Below, one piece after another: positions 31,570 through 43,223 of a stretch of DNA of 64,000 nt; the first letter of the stretch is position 1; each line of letters begins with the position of its first letter. A program made the translations under genes and the position numbers. Under the pieces are notes generated by a model. The model saw nothing but the letters and a program-made list of their open reading frames with translations, was not told the DNA's origin and made no database searches. This stretch comes from Escherichia coli (GTDB lineage: Bacteria; Pseudomonadota; Gammaproteobacteria; Enterobacterales; Enterobacteriaceae): assembly GCF_044324875.1 (NCBI RefSeq), contig NZ_CP172185.1, one strand, 5' to 3'.

Positions 31570-31598
31570 GCTACATACGGCTGTCGGTTTACGCTTAC
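31570..31598. repeat. solo IS66-family terminal inverted repeat
   Basis: GCTACATACGGCTGTCGGTTTACGCTTAC differs at 2 of 29 positions from the right end of the IS66-family element at 41991-42019; no transposase body adjacent. Confidence 0.5.
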
Positions 31599-32687: not shown

Positions 32688-33578
32688 TCAGGCTGCCAGA
32701 TCATCGTTTCCGATGGAAGCATAATAAGATTTTTCTGCTTCTGCCGGTGGGATATGGCCCAGCCTTTCCAGCAATCGTCGATTGTTATACCAGTCCACCC
32801 ACGTGAGTGTGGCCAGCTCCACTTCTGTCCGGTTTTTCCAGCTCTTACGGTGTATTACCTCCGCTTTGTAAAGGCCATTGATGCTCTCCGCCATCGCGTT
32901 GTCATACGAGTCACCAGTACTTCCTGTTGATGCCAGTAATCCGGCTTCCTTAAGCCGCTGTGTGTAGGCCAGCGATACATACTGAGAACCTTTATCACTG
33001 TGATGGACTGTGCCGGACGGTCGACGGGCCCATAACGCCTGCTCCAGAGCATCCAGCACGAATGTCGTTTCCATAGACGATGAGACCCGCCACCCCACGA
33101 TGTATCCGGCAAACACATCAATGATGAACGCCACATAGACGACCCCCTCCCATGTGCTGACGTAAGTAAAATCAGCCACCCACAACTGGTCAGGACGTTC
33201 TGCCACAAACTGACGGTTTACGCGGTCGCCTGCGGCAACGGCTTTCCGGCTGACGGTAGTGCGGACCTTTTTACCCCGGAGAACACCGGCAAGTCCCATA
33301 ACCGCCATGAGGCGCGCCACTGTACATCTGGCTACCCTGATTCCTTCCCGTAACAACTGACGCCAGACTTTACGCACACCGTATACCTGATGATTCCCAT
33401 CGTATACGCGCAGTATCTCTTTCTTCAGCCAGTCATCGCGCTGCGCACGGGCACTGCGTTTATAAGGATGATGTCGCTGTTGCTGACAGTGGTAATACGT
33501 TGACGGGGCAATATGTAGTTCACTGCATACCGGTCCGACCCCGTACAGCTTACGCAGCTTATCCAGCAGTGGCATCAC
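32688..33578 (-). CDS. IS629 OrfB transposase
   Basis: 296-aa DDE ORF. Confidence 0.9.
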
Positions 33579-33901
33579 TTTTTCCAGAGGCGGTCGAACT
33601 CCGCCTTCGCAAAATAAGCGGAAGCCTGGCGAAGGATATCGTTACTGCGGCGCAGTTCACGATTTTCACGTTCCAGCTCTTTCAGACGCTGACGTTCAGC
33701 GGTGGTGAGCCCGCCATCACCGCCTCCGGTATCCCGCTCATGCTGGCGTACCCAGACACGCAGAGTCTCCGGTGTACAGCCAATCTTTGGGGCAATGGAA
33801 CAAATTGCCGCCCACTGTGAGTCATATTCGCCCTGACTTTCCAGAACCATACGAATCGCCCTCTGACGGACTTCGGGGGAAAAACGAGTATTTTTAGTCA
33901 T
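33575..33901 (-). CDS. IS629 OrfA
   Basis: [33 protein letters not shown]... Confidence 0.9.
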
Positions 33902-34412
33902 TCTGTTTACCTCTTTCTCAGGGAGTTTAGTCTCCAGGATTCCCGGGGCGGTTCAGTACGGCTTGGCGCGGATGGCATCATTGTCTCCAATCATGGCGGA
34001 CGTCAGCTTGATGGTGCCATCCCCACGGCCAGGGCATTACCGGCGATAGCAGATGCAGTGGGTGATGACATCACGGTACTGGCGGATTCAGGTATTCGTT
34101 CCGGTGTGGATGTGGTCCGGATGCTTGCTCTGGGGGCAAAAGGTGTGCTGCTGGGAAGAGCGTATATTTACGCACTTGCCGCTGCGGGAAAAAAAGGCGT
34201 TGAGCACCTGCTCAGACTTTATGCTGAAGATATGAAAGTCACCATGACGCTGATCGGCGCTTCTTCTCCCGCTGATATCAGCAGCAGAAATCTTGAATAT
34301 CTGGAAAAAGAATTCTCCCGACATTCATCATCCTGACCAAAGTAAACCAGGCACATATCCTCCATGCTCCCGGGACAACAGAGCGCAGTTCGGGCACTAC
34401 AGCCTTACTGGT

Positions 34413-34703
34413 TTACCAGTATGGTCTGCATTCAGAAGGGACCGACAACAACTCAGCCAGCTCCGCCACAAGGCGGTTGGTTTCCAGTAATTTCCGCAGA
34501 CTCACCGAAAAATAGCCTTGTGCCACATCGTGATTTTCACAGGCTTCCCTGCGCGTCAGCCCCAGAACAAAATAATCCCTCAGCGCCAGGATAACCTTTT
34601 TACTGTTAACGGGAGAAAGCGCTGCAAGTATTTCAAAATGTGCATCTGACATGCTTCCGGGCGTGTCATATATCCCGGCAACACGACTGTGATATATCCC
34701 CAC
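34413..34703 (-). CDS. PapB/FocB-family transcriptional regulator
   Basis: 96-aa ORF with GSMSDAHFEILAALSPVNSKKVILALRDYFVLGLTRREACE, resembling PapB-type fimbrial regulators. Confidence 0.6.
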   Translation of the reverse strand: MGIYHSRVAGIYDTPGSMSDAHFEILAALSPVNSKKVILALRDYFVLGLTRREACENHDVAQGYFSVSLRKLLETNRLVAELAELLSVPSECRPYW

Positions 34704-35584
34704 GGATACCCCCTGATTACCGCCTGCCCTTATTCCCCGGGAGACTGAGAACAGGCTGAGATATAAGTATATTTATATAATATTATATTTCGGATTATTC
34801 GCAGAATACTGAAAAAACCGGTCGGGTCAACCGCAGGAAAACAGAAAGAGCCTGTAATAACGCATAGAAACGATATTTAAAACCAGAACAACCATCAAAA
34901 ACAGAACATAAAGTCACAAAAACCGTCAAAAACGACCAGGTACTGCATTTTTAACACCTTTTTTAAATTTTGGTATCTTTACAAAAAACACCACCTGAAA
35001 ATCATTTATTTAATTAAATAAAGTAAATTGCTTAGCCTGATAAATATTGTTCTGCAACACTCCGGTTCAGGCAGAATGTATTTTCATGGCTTACCCATTC
35101 AGGCGTAAATGCGATATTCCGCACATGACAGAGACCACACAAAGAAAAACAGGCGCAGACAGCCGGATACAGGATAAATTAACACTTCACAATCCGGCAT
35201 TATTACGCTACAACATTCACGGGCAACTGCCCTTGTAACGAAAACTTCCTTAATTTGGGTATTTGTGTGCCGTACGTCTGTGGTGTACGGCTTTTTTTCA
35301 TTTTTTTATAATTTCTATAAATAAAGATATAATCAATACGTATATACCGTCGTATAAGATCCTTCTTCACCTTTCATTAAAAAGATCCGGAACAAAACAG
35401 ACGATGAGATTGTGGTACTACCAGATTTACACCCTTACTCCGGATAATTCACAAATCCTGAAATTACGACCTTCCTCCCGTTGCCGGACTGAAACAATAT
35501 GCAGACACTCTGACGGACATGTCAGCAATGCACTCGCTCTCTGCTGTACAGGTATTACACCATACTTCACCAGGAGGTCTGTTC

Positions 35585-37228
35585 ATGGATATCTGGTCAC
35601 AGGACTATGATCCCGTCGGAAATATCTGGCTGTCCAGCCTGACAGCATCGCTTCCCATTCTGTTTTTTTTCTTTGCCCTGATTAAGCTGAAGCTTAAAGG
35701 CCATGTTGCTGCCACATGGACTGTCATTATCGCGCTCATCGTGGCCCTTCTTTTTTATAAGATGCCTCTCACAGCCGCACTCGCTTCCGTGCTCTATGGT
35801 TTCTTCTATGGCCTGTGGCCCATTGCCTGGATAATTATTGCCGCAGTTTTTGTTTATAAAATTTCTGTAAAAACCGGACAGTTCGATATCATTCGCGCTT
35901 CAGTGCTGTCCGTTACGCCTGATCAGCGTATTCAGATGCTGATTGTGGGGTTTGCCTTTGGTGCCTTTCTCGAAGGGGCCGCCGGTTTTGGAGCACCTGT
36001 GGCCATAACAGCAGCACTGCTCGTGGTGCTTGGGTTCAGACCACTTTACGCGGCCGGGTTGTGTCTGATCGTCAATACAGCTCCCGTGGCCTTTGGTGCG
36101 ATGGGGATCCCCATTCTCGTCGCAGGCCAGGTTACCGGGCTGGACAGCTTTGAAATCGGTCAGATGGTTGGTCGTCAGTTACCCTTCCTGACCATTATTG
36201 TGTTGTTCTGGATCATGGCAATTATGGATGGCCTGCGTGGCATTAAGGAAACCTGGCCCGCCGTTCTGGTTGCCGGAGGTTCCTTCGCCATAGCCCAGTT
36301 TCTCAGTTCCAACTTTCTGGGCCCGGAGCTCCCGGACATCATATCATCACTGGTGTCGCTGGTTTGTCTGACGCTTTTCCTGAAACGCTGGCAGCCTGTA
36401 CATATTTTTCGCTTTGACAACACCCCGTACCAGAATACGGACTCATCACCACTGAGCCGTTCACAGGTGATACGGGCATGGTCGCCATTTCTGTTTCTGA
36501 CTGCCACGGTGACACTCTGGAGTCTTCCTCCCTTTAAAACACTGTTCGCACCGGGCGGTACACTGCATGACCTGGTGATTACTGTTCCTGTGCCGTATCT
36601 TGATAAACTCATTGCACGTATGCCTCCGGTAGTCAGCGAAGCCACTGCTTATGCCGCGGTGTTTAAGTTTGACTGGTTCTCTGCCACCGGTACCGCCATC
36701 CTGTTTGCAGCATTGCTCTCTGTGATCTGGCTGAAGATGAAACCGTCAGATGCTGTCAGCACCTTTGGCAGTACACTGAAAGAACTTGCCCTGCCCGTCT
36801 ATTCCATCGGCATGGTGCTGGCTTTCGCCTTTATCTCTAATTATTCGGGGCTTTCATCCACACTTGCCCTGGCTCTGGCACAGACAGGCAGCGCCTTTAC
36901 GTTCTTCTCACCGTTTCTGGGCTGGCTGGGCGTATTTCTGACGGGATCAGATACCTCATCCAATGCATTATTTGCATCACTCCAGGCAACGGCAGCTCAT
37001 CAGATCGGGGTCTCCGATATTCTGATGGTTGCCGCCAACACCACAGGGGGAGTAACCGGCAAAATGATTTCTCCACAGTCCATTGCCATCGCCTGCGCAG
37101 CAACCGGACTTGTTGGCAAAGAATCAGAACTCTTTCGTTTTACTGTTAAACACAGCCTGATCTTCACCTGTATTGTGGGAGTCATCACCTCTCTCCAGGC
37201 ATGGGTATTCACCTGGATGATCCCATGA
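35585..37228 (+). CDS. lldP: L-lactate permease (LctP family)
   Basis: Near-collinear with E. coli LldP from [19 protein letters not shown]; start set to ATG 35585. Confidence 0.85.
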
Positions 37229-37403
37229 AATATTTGTTGTGCCGGATCTTTTCCGGCATGATGATGTGTGTTACAGCCTCTGGCTTATAACACTCTGCAG
37301 TAGTGCTGGCTGACGTGACTGCCGGATATTCTGGTTTTCTTAAGTCACGGATATACTGACGACAGGGTTTCACATTCAATATTCAACTGACAGGTATGTT
37401 TAT

Positions 37404-38696
37404 ATGGCACACCGCTACCTGACACGACAGGATCACAGGACCTTATCTCTGGCTGCGCTCGGAGGCGCACTTGAATTCTATGACTTCATCATTTTTGTTT
37501 TTTTCGCCGCCGTCATTGCTGAGCTCTTTTTCCCGCCGGATATACCGGAATGGCTCCGTCAGCTCCAGGCATTTGGTATATTTGCTGCCGGGTACCTGGC
37601 ACGACCTCTCGGCGGAATAATTCTGGCCCATTTTGGCGATATACTTGGGCGAAAGAAAATGTTCACCCTGAGTATTTTGCTTATGGCAGTACCGACACTT
37701 GTTATCGGTATTTTGCCAACCTACAGCTCTGTGGGTACCCTGGCTCCTGTGCTGCTTCTTCTGATGCGTCTGCTTCAGGGCGCAGCGATTGGCGGTGAAG
37801 TGCCCGGTGCCTGGGTTTTTGTTGCTGAGCATGTACCGGAGCGCCGAACCGGTATTGCATGCGGAACACTGACAGCAGGTTTAACCGCCGGGATCCTGCT
37901 TGGTTCAGTGGTTGCCACACTTGTCAATTCAGTATTGTCTCAGGATATTGTTTACGATTACGGCTGGCGATTCCCCTTCCTTCTTGGTGGTGTTTTTGGC
38001 CTGGCAGCAATGTACCTGCGCCGCTGGCTGGAGGAAACTCCGGTATTTCTGGAAATGAAAGCCAGAAAAAAACTGGCTCAGGAATTACCGGTAAAAGCTG
38101 TCGTTTTAAGACATAAAAAAGCTGTTGTGATTTCCATGCTGTTGACATGGCTGATATCCGCAGGGATTATTGTGGTGATACTGATGGCACCGGTCTGGTT
38201 ACAGAAACAGTATGACTTTTCGCCGACAGTCACCTTACAGGCTAACAGCATTGCAACTATTATGCTGAGTCTGGGATGCCTGCTGGCCGGTATGGCCATT
38301 GATTCTTTTGGTGCCGGAAAAACCTTTATATCAGGCAGTATTCTGCTTGGATGTTCAGGATGGCTGTTCTATCACACTGTCGGTGAGTATCCTGAAATGT
38401 TGTTCTGGCTGTATGGGCTGGCGGGATTCAGTGTGGGCATTGTCGGGGCCGTCCCTTATGTTCTCGTGCGTATTTTCCCCGCAGAGGTCAGGTTTACCGG
38501 CATTTCATTCTCTTACAATGTCGCTTATGCAGTGGTGGGGGGACTGACTCCTGTTGTGGTCACGATGTTAACGGAAATCTCCCCGATGGCTCCAGCATGG
38601 TATGTTATGCTGTTATCACTTGTGGGATCAGGACTGGGAATATGGTTCTGCAGGGATCCCCGTCTTTTTATCTGTCACGCAGACAAAGACAAATAA
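37404..38696 (+). CDS. MFS transporter, metabolite:H+ symporter type
   Basis: 430-aa 12-TM ORF with MFS motifs (GDILGRKK, LLMRLLQGAAIGGE). Confidence 0.8.
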   Translation: MAHRYLTRQDHRTLSLAALGGALEFYDFIIFVFFAAVIAELFFPPDIPEWLRQLQAFGIFAAGYLARPLGGIILAHFGDILGRKKMFTLSILLMAVPTLVIGILPTYSSVGTLAPVLLLLMRLLQGAAIGGEVPGAWVFVAEHVPERRTGIACGTLTAGLTAGILLGSVVATLVNSVLSQDIVYDYGWRFPFLLGGVFGLAAMYLRRWLEETPVFLEMKARKKLAQELPVKAVVLRHKKAVVISMLLTWLISAGIIVVILMAPVWLQKQYDFSPTVTLQANSIATIMLSLGCLLAGMAIDSFGAGKTFISGSILLGCSGWLFYHTVGEYPEMLFWLYGLAGFSVGIVGAVPYVLVRIFPAEVRFTGISFSYNVAYAVVGGLTPVVVTMLTEISPMAPAWYVMLLSLVGSGLGIWFCRDPRLFICHADKDK

Positions 38697-38738
38697 TGTT
38701 TCACCGTTATATAACGGTATCATTCAGTTTTTAAAAAT

Positions 38739-38760
38739 GGCGACAGGTTAACCTGTCGCC
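38739..38760. terminator. candidate terminator hairpin after the MFS gene
   Basis: GGCGACAGG-TTAA-CCTGTCGCC perfect 9-bp stem, 43 bp after the stop; no clean T-run, so efficiency uncertain. Confidence 0.4.
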
Positions 38761-39328
38761 ATCCGGTCAGATGCTCACCAGACCGCGCCCCCCATCAGTC
38801 TCCATATCCTCCCCCTTGCCCTGCCGGATGATAGCGCCACGCGACATCACCAGGTAGTGGTCCGCCGTCATGTTCCGGTGAAATCGTCCTGACACGTTTC
38901 CGGGCTCGTTATCAGCGGTTTTTGCGAATGATCGCCGCCCTGCGATGGTTGATTTATTTTATTGCGCCCCGGCGTCTGCCTTGCCAGGTACCGGAGGCGG
39001 GCTCTGAAGTACTGAGTAGGGTGAGCGCGTCAGGCCACGAAGTACTGACACGGGAGTTTGTGGCAGGCAGTGAAGTCCTGACCAGGGTAAGGGAGGGGCT
39101 GACGTGCATGCCCTGACTGTCAGCCAGGGCGCGTGGTGACTGACTTTCTCAATAACCCGCTGTCAGGCGCTCAACGCCCGACAGCAGGCCATGGCCCGGT
39201 GTGCAAAGACCTGACGGCAGGCCTTGTGTCACCCGGATAAGGTAAATCCCTCAAGAGGCAGCAACTCAGCCAGTCGGTCCTCAGGCCACTCCGGCAGGCG
39301 CGTCAGTACGTCCGTCAGCCAGGCATGT

Positions 39329-39432
39329 TGCAAAATCGCATCGTGTTCGATCGCCGATTCGCATCGTACTCGATCGCTGATTCGCATTGTCCGATCATTG
39401 ATTCGCATCCTGCAGTCACTCCTGGAATTAAC
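39329..39432 (+). mobile_element. IS21-family left-end remnant
   Basis: TGCAAAATCGCAT… with four ATTCGCAT subterminal repeats and …CCTGCAGTCACTCCTGGAATTAAC, paralleling the left end of the intact IS21-family element; sequence diverges after 39432. Confidence 0.5.
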
Positions 39433-39517
39433 TTTTCTGCATAGTCTCTACTGCTGAATTTTCTTCTCAGTAGAGGTCTTGATGGCTGTAAGCGTCAACG
39501 GAGCACCGTATTGACGC

Positions 39518-41131
39518 TTATTTATTGGTGAGTACTACGTTCCATGGCAGGAGTTCGTCAACTCGGTTGGAAGGCCATTCCGGCAGTACGCTCAGGATAT
39601 GGCGCAGATACGCTTCCGGATCGATACCGTTCAGACGGCAGGTGCCGATCAGCCCGTACAACAGTGCTCCACGCTCGCTGCCGTGATCGCTGCCAAAGAA
39701 CATAAAGTTTTTCTTTCCGAGACAGACTGCACGAAGCGCTCTTTCCGCAGCATTATTATCCGCCTCCGCCAGACCGTCATCACTGTAATAACAGAGGGCA
39801 TCCCACTGATTCAGTACATAGCTGAACGCTTCGCCCAGTCTGGATTTTTTCGACAGCGTACCATTCTTCTCCACCATCCATTCATGCAGCGACGTCAGTA
39901 ACACTTTGCTTCGCTGCTGCCTGACGGCAAGACGCTCTGACTCCGGTAATCCCCGTATTTCATCCTCGATGGCGTACAGTTCACTGATTCGCTTCAGGGC
40001 TTCTTCTGCCGTCGCACTTTTGCTGCTGATGTATACATCGTGGATTTTTCGCCGGGCATGGGCCCAGCACGCAACTTCTGTCAGTGCACCACCTTCACGT
40101 TCTGCACTGAACAACCTGTCGTAACCTGTGAACGCATCCGCCTGCAGGATACCCCGGAAGGGGCGGAGGTGTTGCTCCGGGTGTTTCCCCTGCCGGTTCG
40201 GCGAGTACGCGAACCAGACCGCTGGAGGAGATGACGAACCCACATTGCGATCATCCCGGACATACGTCCAGATACGCCCTGTTTTCGCCTTTTTCTGACC
40301 CGGTGCCAGTACCTTTACCGGTGTGTCATCAGTGTGAACCTTGCGGGTGTTCATTACATAACGGTACAGGGCATCATTCACCGGTGTCATTAACTGGCAG
40401 CACGCGTCAACCCAGTTGGAGAGTAAGGCCCGGCTCAGTTCGACACCCTGGCGGGCAAAGATTTCACTCTGACGATACAGTGGCAGGTGTTCGCAGTATT
40501 TTCCCGTTAACACGCGGGCAAGTAACCCCGGGCCCGCGATACCACGCTCTATCGGACGGGATGGTGCCGGTGCTTCAACGATACAGTCACATTTTGTACA
40601 GGCTTTTTTTACCCGTTCTGTGCGGATCACTTTCAGGGCGCTGCTCACCAGTTCCAGTTGTTCTGCACTGACTTCCCCCAGATAATCCAGCTCACCGCCA
40701 CACTCCGGGCAACAGCTTTCTTCAGGCTCCAGGCGGTTTATTTCGCGGGGCAGATGCTCCGGTAACGGACGACGATGGCGTGACTGTCGCAACTGGCGGG
40801 GAACCTGCCGGTCATCCTCTCGCCCACTGTAACGATCGCTGTCCTGTTCGCGTTGCTTCAGCAGGGCCTCAGCCTGTTCAACTTCACGACGCAGTTTTTC
40901 AGAACGGGTACCGAACAGCATCCGGCGCAGTTTTTCTATCTGAGCCCGCAGATGTTCTATTTCCCGTTCATCTTCTTCGATCTTTTCTTCGGCACGTGCC
41001 AGCGCAGAACGCAGGAAGGCCTCCGTCTCTTCAACCAGACTCAGTTGTTGGTCTTTCTGACGGAGGGCTTCAGCCTGCTCAGAGAGCAACCTTTCCAGCT
41101 CTGCGATGCGAATGAGGTATTTCTGACTCAT
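39518..41131 (-). CDS. IS66-family transposase TnpC
   Basis: 537-aa ORF, CCPECGG motif. Confidence 0.9.
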   Translation of the reverse strand: MSQKYLIRIAELERLLSEQAEALRQKDQQLSLVEETEAFLRSALARAEEKIEEDEREIEHLRAQIEKLRRMLFGTRSEKLRREVEQAEALLKQREQDSDRYSGREDDRQVPRQLRQSRHRRPLPEHLPREINRLEPEESCCPECGGELDYLGEVSAEQLELVSSALKVIRTERVKKACTKCDCIVEAPAPSRPIERGIAGPGLLARVLTGKYCEHLPLYRQSEIFARQGVELSRALLSNWVDACCQLMTPVNDALYRYVMNTRKVHTDDTPVKVLAPGQKKAKTGRIWTYVRDDRNVGSSSPPAVWFAYSPNRQGKHPEQHLRPFRGILQADAFTGYDRLFSAEREGGALTEVACWAHARRKIHDVYISSKSATAEEALKRISELYAIEDEIRGLPESERLAVRQQRSKVLLTSLHEWMVEKNGTLSKKSRLGEAFSYVLNQWDALCYYSDDGLAEADNNAAERALRAVCLGKKNFMFFGSDHGSERGALLYGLIGTCRLNGIDPEAYLRHILSVLPEWPSNRVDELLPWNVVLTNK

Positions 41132-41161
41132 GACCGTTTTTATAATGCGGTCAGGCGTTTT

Positions 41162-41512
41162 TTACAACATTGTCAGTGAGTTAAGGCGGGATGTTTTTGG
41201 CTGACGCCAGTCCAGCTTATCGAGGAGCATTACCAGTTGCGAACGGGTAATGGATACCTTGCCGTCACGTACCGCAGGCCAGATAAACTGGCCTTCCTCC
41301 AGGCGTTTGGTGAACAGGCACAGACCATCAGCATCAGCCCAAAGAATTTTAACGGTGTCACCCCGTCGGCCACGGAAGATAAACAGGTGGCCGGAGAAGG
41401 GATTATCATTCAGCACATGTTGTACCTGTTCTCCCAGTCCGTTGAAGGATTTACGCATATCGGTAACGCCGGCAACGAGCCAGATACGGGTACCTGATGG
41501 GAGTGAAATCAT
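41162..41512 (-). CDS. IS66-family TnpB (Orf2)
   Basis: 116-aa ORF MISLPSGTRIWLVAGVTDMRKSFNGL... Confidence 0.9.
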   Translation of the reverse strand: MISLPSGTRIWLVAGVTDMRKSFNGLGEQVQHVLNDNPFSGHLFIFRGRRGDTVKILWADADGLCLFTKRLEEGQFIWPAVRDGKVSITRSQLVMLLDKLDWRQPKTSRLNSLTML

Positions 41513-41934
41513 CTTCCCCTCCCGCTCAGTTCGCGGATCAACACCGTGAGCAGCTCTGGCGATGGATTTTCCAGCGTCATGTTACCGTGATGGAACTCCA
41601 CCTTGCAGGAACTGGCACTGACTCTGGTCTGAGTGGAAGTGGATAAAGACGGCGCAATGGCCGCCACAGGTTCTTTCTGCTCATCCGGCGTTATTTCTAC
41701 AGGTAATAATTCAACGCCAGTGTCAGAAGAGGTCGTTACCGGAAGACGCCGCGAAACACGCCCTTCGTTCTGCCAGAGCCTGAGCCATTTGAAAATAACA
41801 TTATCATTGACGCCATTTTCACGTGCAATCTGTGCAACACAAGCTCCAGGTTGTGATGCCAGTTCAACCATACGAAGTTTGAATTCATTCGAATAGTTTT
41901 TACGAGGTTCTTTTCGCCAGTCCTGTAATTCCAT
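41509..41934 (-). CDS. IS66-family TnpA (Orf1)
   Basis: 141-aa ORF, 4-bp overlap with tnpB. Confidence 0.85.
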   Translation of the reverse strand: MELQDWRKEPRKNYSNEFKLRMVELASQPGACVAQIARENGVNDNVIFKWLRLWQNEGRVSRRLPVTTSSDTGVELLPVEITPDEQKEPVAAIAPSLSTSTQTRVSASSCKVEFHHGNMTLENPSPELLTVLIRELSGRGR

Positions 41935-42019
41935 ACTTAGATGTCCGTCTATATCAGATGGGCGTCTAAGTTACCAATTTTCGTCTGATGGCTACATACG
42001 GCGGTCAGTTTACGCTTAC

Positions 42020-42332: not shown

Positions 42333-43223
42333 TCAGGCTGCCAGATCATCGTTTCCGATGGAAGCATAATAAGCTTTTTCTGCTTCTGCCGGTGGGATAT
42401 GGCCCAGCCTTTCCAGCAATCGTCGATTGTTATACCAGTCCACCCACGTGAGTGTGGCCAGCTCCACTTCTGTCCGGTTTTTCCAGCTCTTACGGTGTAT
42501 TACCTCCGCTTTGTAAAGGCCATTGATGCTCTCCGCCATCGCGTTGTCATACGAGTCACCAGTACTTCCTGTTGATGCCAGTAATCCGGCTTCCTTAAGC
42601 CGCTGTGTGTAGGCCAGCGATACATACTGAGAACCTTTATCACTGTGATGGACTGTGCCGGACGGTCGACGGGCCCATAACGCCTGCTCCAGAGCATCCA
42701 GCACGAATGTCGTTTCCATAGACGATGAGACCCGCCACCCCACGATGTATCCGGCAAACACATCAATGATGAACGCCACATAGACGACCCCCTGCCATGT
42801 GCTGACGTAAGTAAAATCAGCCACCCACAACTGGTCAGGACGTTCTGCCACAAACTGACGGTTTACGCGGTCGCCTGCGGCAACGGCTTTCCGGCTGACG
42901 GTAGTGCGGACCTTTTTACCCCGGAGAACACCGGCAAGTCCCATAACCGCCATGAGGCGCGCCACTGTACATCTGGCTACCCTGATTCCTTCCCGTAACA
43001 ACTGACGCCAGACTTTACGCACACCGTATACCTGATGATTCCCATCGTATACGCGCAGTATCTCTTTCTTCAGCCAGTCATCGCGCTGCGCACGGGCACT
43101 GCGTTTATCCGGATGATGTCGCTGTTGCTGACAGTGGTAATACGTTGACGGGGCAATATGTAGTTCACTGCATACCGGTCCGACCCCGTACAGCTTACGC
43201 AGCTTATCCAGCAGTGGCATCAC
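42333..43223 (-). CDS. IS629 OrfB transposase
   Basis: 296-aa DDE ORF. Confidence 0.9.

Follow-up and report, generated by a model that had tools for sequence, protein, structure and literature searches.

What occupies the DNA between an intact MFS transporter gene and the complete insertion sequence (IS) ISEc23 in a 64-kb stretch of Escherichia coli DNA (referred to throughout as the window), and do two sequence motifs noticed there, a short perfect palindrome and a degenerate tandem repeat, have a common origin or any function? A first-pass annotation had held that neither motif is explained by genes or IS ends; this is correct for the palindrome, which lies outside any gene or IS, but not for the repeat, which falls inside the end of an IS66-family element. 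From 38697 rightwards, the region very probably represents the junction of native island DNA with a stack of broken IS ends, the palindrome being unrelated to the repeats. A terminator spacer, a stump of urtE, and three nested IS ends, namely those of an IS66-family element, an IS21-family element, and ISEc23, together explain all of the DNA that separates the MFS gene from ISEc23 (Table 1), and each of these constituents is of an already-known kind. The relevance of the nested ends is mainly to annotation and they carry little biological weight; the sole loose thread is the array in ISEc49-like tails, which may be of interest to transposition specialists.

Table 1. Features of the region from the MFS gene to ISEc23 (coordinates are those of the window; strand is given where one applies).
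Feature	Coordinates	Strand	Basis or remark
MFS transporter gene (metabolite/H+ symporter family), intact	37404..38696	+	430-aa ORF; TIGR00883 (2e-88); RefSeq WP_029490234.1
16-bp perfect palindrome ACCGTTATATAACGGT	38703..38718		Weak AU-rich RNA hairpin
26-bp perfect palindrome ATGGCGACAGGTTAACCTGTCGCCAT	38737..38762	-	GC-rich hairpin, then TTTTT on the minus strand
urtE 3' stump (urea ABC transporter ATPase; last 33 codons and stop)	38767..38867	-	Translation, TIGR03410, Klebsiella homology, RefSeq pseudogene
ISEc49-like IS66-family right-end remnant, 464 bp	38868..39331	-	Homology to complete tnpA-tnpB-tnpC elements
Terminal inverted repeat of the IS66-family remnant (GTCATGTTCCGGTGAAATCGTCCTGACACG...)	38868..38900	-	Aligns with GTAATATTCCGGCGAACTCATATTGACGCG of L003
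Three degenerate 33-bp tandem units	39006..39104		Each begins GAAGT(A/C)CTGA
Long conserved inverted repeat (CTGTCAGG / CCTGACGG and extensions), just 3' of the tnpC stop	39157..39222	-	Counterpart in L003; not supported by covariation
tnpC fragment (IS66-family transposase; last codons and stop)	39229..39331	-	RefSeq pseudogene, PF13817, alignment to L003 and L085 tnpC
IS21-family left end, reaching the istA start region	39332..39487	+	77% identity to an IS21-family left end with ISSso4-family istB
23-bp tandem repeat, 3.3 copies (TCGCATCGTGTTCGATCGCTGAT)	39336..39409	+	Tandem Repeats Finder, repeat search, alignment to L184 upstream of istA
Complete ISEc23 (IS66 family, 2532 bp; tnpA, tnpB, tnpC)	39488..42019	-	RefSeq; tips GTAAGCGTCAAC at 39488 and GTAAGCGTAAAC (minus strand) at 42008-42019

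The junction of the MFS gene with urtE is found at 100% identity in 10 complete E. coli chromosomes, and the whole interval is common to 8-9 of them; NZ_CP128970.1 is an example of a carrier genome. Past the MFS gene, RefSeq annotates identical loci with three features in order: an ABC ATPase pseudogene on the minus strand, a 'transposase domain' pseudogene, and complete ISEc23. The first of these corresponds to the urtE stump, the translation of which ends ...ADHYLVMSRGAIIRQGKGEDMETDGGRGLVSI*, gives a weak match to the part of TIGR03410 that covers the UrtE C-terminus, and is encoded by DNA with 83% identity to the urtE 3' end in Klebsiella plasmids. Homology to urtE ends exactly at ...GTGGTCCGCC (38867), and by this alignment the gene is cut by an IS66-family insertion at 38867/38868.

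The segment that begins at this breakpoint, 38868-39331, is collinear with the right ends of complete elements at 75-78% identity over 460 bp (L003, L085, which belongs to the ISEc49 family, and L087), each of which has annotated tnpA, tnpB, and tnpC genes. In ISEc49-like elements the tnpC stop codon is located about 360 bp from the tip, and the window keeps that non-coding tail together with the last 34 or so codons of tnpC; RefSeq labels the tnpC fragment as a 'transposase domain-containing protein' pseudogene, and the PF13817 domain (DDE_Tnp_IS66_C) was detected on the corresponding gene call in an identical contig (L088). By homology, the segment constitutes an ISEc49-like IS66-family right end, the element being dead at this location. 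It shares with ISEc49-type IS66 elements (tnpA-tnpB-tnpC, about 2.77 kb) the GTAA...TTCCGG-type inverted repeat, the tail, the 33-bp units, and the tnpC C-terminus, but differs from them in keeping the last 464 bp only, in having a tip that reads GTCA instead of GTAA, and in representing a distinct variant about 75% identical to them. The IS66-family tips of relatives read GTAATATTCCGG or GTAAGCTTCCGG, and that of the window reads GTCATGTTCCGG, with one tip mismatch. The L003 element is 2773 bp long, possesses 33-nt inverted repeats beginning GTAAT, with the two ends pairing at 85% over 33 nt, and is flanked on both sides by the 8-bp target duplication GATATAAC; the left end of the window remnant is gone. 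The segment is 96% identical to other remnants (L002 and L100), and this variant has been met only as fragments. A complete ISEc49-like copy is located at 1951345-1954117 of NZ_CP148453.1.

Remnants of the IS66-family tail are widespread, being present in 2684 of 5426 complete E. coli genomes (about half), K-12 included; the copy in K-12 DH1 (L092, 2355-2645) contains a single repeat unit and adjoins IS4 and a tnpC pseudogene. When E. coli AR_0085 (L084, 5001-5681) is compared with window positions 38650-39331, the first 360 bp are identical and are followed by 12 differences in the IS66-family tail, a mosaic that suggests recombination between IS remnants. AR_0085 has kept a longer tnpC fragment and contains no IS21 or ISEc23 insertion. 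Elsewhere in the window, a minus-strand copy of GTAAGCGTAAAC at 31587-31598 is identical to the left-end tip of ISEc23 at 42008-42019 and may mark another IS66-family end.

The tnpC fragment of the remnant is interrupted in turn. The adjoining 39332-39487 shares 77% identity with sequence upstream of istA/istB in L184, including the same repeated units, and the 23-bp repeats at 39336-39409 are, on the strength of that match, the multiple terminal repeats of an IS21-family end. As read from the breakpoints, an IS21-family element is inserted into the IS66-family tnpC and is itself cut by ISEc23. The order of events would accordingly have been insertion of an IS66-family element into urtE, of an IS21-family element into the tnpC gene so introduced, and of ISEc23 into the IS21-family end. 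Relatives of the IS21-family left-end fragment are found in 875 E. coli records, at up to 22 places per genome.

The repeat that had drawn attention to this locus is thus embedded in the non-coding tail of the IS66-family remnant. Exact matches to GAAGTMCTGA occur in the 64-kb window only at 39006, 39039, and 39072, with a spacing of exactly 33 bp, and the identities of the 33-bp units (21/33, 18/33, and 17/33) compare with 8.9 +/- 2.7 for adjacent 33-mers in the window. The three-copy repeat of the first-pass annotation is therefore real, although it spans 39006-39104, not 38985-39090, and the ...CAGG ending attributed to it is present in units 1 and 2 only. Tandem Repeats Finder was silent on the array even at a minimum score of 30, which fits a degenerate repeat. 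The array lies 139-237 bp from the IS66-family tip.

Comparison with related tails provides a view of how the array has evolved. In 734 E. coli records the tail is conserved over at least 80% of its length, and a search for a tnpC-end pattern yielded 86 metagenome stretches, most of which carry the 33-bp units; the pattern also matched unrelated genes (e.g., L105), which were discarded. Three units are present in most relatives, two in L091 and L133, and one in K-12 DH1 (L092), and these copy-number variants are deletions of one or two unit lengths. Since copy number varies by whole units among relatives, the array behaves as a tandem repeat, and the units would be expected to expand and contract by unit-length slippage or recombination. 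The segment 38985-39071, comprising the pre-repeat sequence and units 1-2, is better conserved than any other part of the tail, with 75-89% identity between the window type and other types; outside it, the same comparison gives 52-63% for the flanks and 62% for the inverted repeat. The pentamer CTGAC/GTCAG occurs 10 times in the 364-nt tail (38868-39231; seven on the plus strand and three on the minus), against 0.8 in shuffled sequences and 4.4 per kb window-wide, and CCTGAC occurs six times in the same interval.

These features indicate that the 33-bp units form a minisatellite intrinsic to the roughly 360-bp non-coding tail and possibly functional in this IS subgroup, and the higher conservation of units 1-2 makes pure neutrality less likely. 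Units 1 and 2, the conserved ones, would probably act in cis at that end of live elements, through protein binding or hairpins; in the window, where the element is dead, the units are inert. How IS66-family elements transpose is poorly understood, and we know of no described role for a conserved, phased, copy-number-variable array in ISEc49-like tails; a literature search returned nothing on these motifs or on IS66-family tails. We put forward as a tentative suggestion, less probable than its negation, that 38985-39071 and the enrichment of CTGAC/GTCAG together constitute a cis-acting module of ISEc49-like right ends, either a binding array for the transposase or an accessory protein or a regulatory RNA controlling transposition, of which the window contains an inert relic.

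The first form that such a module could take, by analogy with the ends of IS21, Tn7, and Mu, is a set of subterminal binding sites for TnpC or TnpA that would aid assembly of a transposition complex at the right end. The regular 33-bp phasing, the better conservation of units 1-2 relative to the inverted repeat, and the abundance of CTGAC/GTCAG over shuffled sequence all speak for binding sites, and the inner part of the window inverted repeat (GTCCTGACACG) agrees with unit 2 (GTACTGACACG) at 10/11 positions. An IS21-family end with exactly such repeats is located next door and serves as an analog. The 33-bp units resemble the multiple terminal repeats of IS21 in being short, phased direct repeats just inside an IS end, and a true IS21-type example, the 23-bp units at 39336-39409, lies 230 bp from them; unlike the IS21 repeats, they are carried by an IS66-family element, at one end only and beginning 139 bp from the tip, and the protein that would bind them is putative. 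Against binding sites, the left end of complete elements (L003) is without the 33-bp motif, the similarity of inverted repeat to unit falls to 8/11 in L003, and remnants with two copies or one exist, though these may be inactive. The units thus do not provide a motif common to the inverted repeat and both ends, and we regard binding sites as a possibility that the balance of evidence leaves doubtful.

Alternatively, the tail and its units might act as RNA, either as the structured 3' UTR of the tnpABC mRNA or as a small RNA controlling the expression or stability of the transposase. The minus-strand fold of the tail has a z-score of -2.1, a hairpin of the form GUGUCAG...CUGACGC is conserved across units 1-2, a long stem follows the tnpC stop, and GTCAG/CTGAC pairs could give several stems. 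However, the RNAalifold covariation term of +0.55 lends no net support (from a 20-sequence alignment with 91% column identity and hence little power), two-sided changes affect 5 of 77 pairs and come mostly from two window-type rows, and no Rfam family reaches threshold for the IS66-family tail. A role as RNA seems rather improbable. More improbable still, to the point of being negligible, is a peptide origin for the period, in which 33 bp would equal 11 codons of an 11-residue repeat (EVLSRVSASGH / EVLTREFVAGS / EVLTRVREGLT) within the 64-codon open frame that covers the units on the plus strand (38922-39116): arrays in relatives contain frame-breaking indels (+1 in L137, -2 in L094), wobble bases in GAA GTA CTG vary no more than the other bases, the variation falling at a second codon position, the TTG start is in a poorly conserved stretch, and a different 47-codon ORF, annotated in L003, L087, and L090, is broken by early stop codons both in the window and in L085. 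On the strength of the indels, the invariant wobble positions, and the interrupted ORF, coding readings were rejected.

Two further observations concern sequences related to the array. In E. coli O157:H7 Wll001 (L089, 2998-3150), compared with L090, the first 150 bp or so of the IS66-family right end are present in an extra, diverged copy; this additional copy runs from its inverted repeat to the first GAAGAACTGA and directly adjoins the end of GAAGAACTGA in another copy, and the same arrangement is found in five metagenome contigs (the L115 group). The structure looks like the product of recombination after one element had inserted into another's repeat array. Within the window, GAAGTACTGG, one mismatch from the repeat core, occurs at 32914, 42559, 49873, 52559, and 53763; at least the copy at 42559 lies inside an IS3-family transposase gene, and these sites probably represent IS copies unrelated to the 33-bp array.

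The palindrome belongs to the other side of the junction, the 70-bp spacer (38697-38766) between the converging ends of the MFS gene and urtE. The strongest feature of this spacer is one that had been overlooked in the first-pass annotation, the 26-bp palindrome ATGGCGACAGGTTAACCTGTCGCCAT (38737-38762), which is much stronger than the 16-bp palindrome, begins 19 bases downstream of it, and is the longest perfect palindrome in the window. Its predicted fold has an energy of -20.1 kcal/mol on the plus strand and -21.8 kcal/mol on the minus strand (z = -5.0 and -6.7, respectively), and on the minus strand, the sense of urtE, UUUUU directly follows the stem. Rfam gave a local match (E = 6e-4), below the gathering score, to the hairpin of the CsrC terminator, and a consensus terminator scan of the window did not list 38737-38762. 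From the hairpin and its T-run, the 26-bp palindrome is likely to be the intrinsic terminator of the urt operon; it is also placed at the presumed 3' end of the MFS transcript, although the plus strand has no T-run after the hairpin. It resembles the intrinsic (Rho-independent) terminators of converging genes in being a GC-rich perfect hairpin between two stop codons, bounded by an A-run and a T-run at its two ends, and MFS homologs bear such hairpins at the same place. It differs from shared converging terminators in that the T-run is on the minus strand only and that the 16-bp palindrome forms an extra, weak hairpin.

The 16-bp palindrome itself was described correctly: ACCGTTATATAACGGT is perfect and occupies 38703-38718, starting 6 nt beyond the MFS stop codon (last base 38696) and lying 49 nt from the urtE stop. 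Spacer-less perfect palindromes with arms of at least 8 nt occur at a mean of 1.05 in dinucleotide-shuffled windows, with at least one in 65% of shuffles. The real window contains five, against about one expected, so that the class is somewhat enriched; the 16-bp palindrome is within chance expectation. No second copy of ACCGTTATATAACGGT was found in the 64-kb window at up to two mismatches, and one further match at three mismatches lies inside a CDS. It is absent 3' of about 58 MFS homologs from other genera, most of which have an ordinary terminator hairpin at that position, and 3' of Klebsiella urtE. This uniqueness in the window, and the lack of copies at homologous MFS and urtE loci, is the pattern that the first-pass annotation had itself taken to indicate chance. 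Six copies in all were found in viral contigs, where chance would be expected to give about that number or more (a rough estimate that assumes the size of the collection).

As RNA, ACCGTTATATAACGGT is predicted to fold into a 6-bp stem with an AUAU loop and outer AAUG/CAUU pairs, at -6.5 kcal/mol on the plus strand and -8.4 kcal/mol on the minus strand. It has no adjacent T-run, the nearest beginning 3 nt past the extended stem. The palindrome would therefore form a weak AU-rich hairpin at the position occupied by the terminator in MFS homologs, a few bases after the stop codon. Most likely it has little or no function of its own, and at most it contributes to transcript-end formation or 3'-end stability.

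The first-pass annotation had also implied that the palindrome might be an operator, that is, a site for a dimeric transcription factor regulating the MFS gene or the urt operon. A 16-bp perfect dyad has the symmetry and the length typical of the operators of dimeric repressors, and palindromes are modestly over-represented in the window. Unlike palindromic operators, however, it is located between converging 3' ends and not in a promoter or 5' regulatory region, stands as a single copy with no half-site cluster in 64 kb, has no adjoining regulator gene, is not conserved at the homologous loci, and is at chance level in viral contigs. LacI/GalR-type operators are CG-centered, which the TATA center of the palindrome does not fit. 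An operator is thus very unlikely. All carriers of ACCGTTATATAACGGT are identical copies of the island, 10 E. coli genomes having a spacer 100% identical, and a diverged syntenic MFS-urtE locus was sought without success (look-up of the exact MFS protein returned the same island, and that of the urtE stump returned only itself); because the carriers are identical and such a locus is lacking, a binding site specific to this lineage is still conceivable.

Two connections between the palindrome and the neighboring IS were considered and rejected. As a degenerate IS66 inverted repeat, it would align at 15/19 positions (TTTCACCGTTATATAAC against TTTCACCGGAACATGAC), but the MFS gene, intact to 38696, bars an IS interior on the left; as a preferred IS66 target, it shares 9 nt with the L003 target GATATAACGG, and ten other flanks show no resemblance. 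A different derivation, suggestive only, is that the palindrome is what remains of the terminator hairpin of Citrobacter orthologs, with which it shares its offset and ATAACGG on the 3' side.

Below its own cluster (100% identity), no known relative of the MFS protein exceeds 79% identity, so the donor lineage of the island is, as far as protein comparison indicates, unsampled. The MFS gene is preceded by second copies of lldD and lldP, with a gene for a PapB/FocB-type regulator between them, the whole occupying window positions 33170-38696 (521-6047 in L001).
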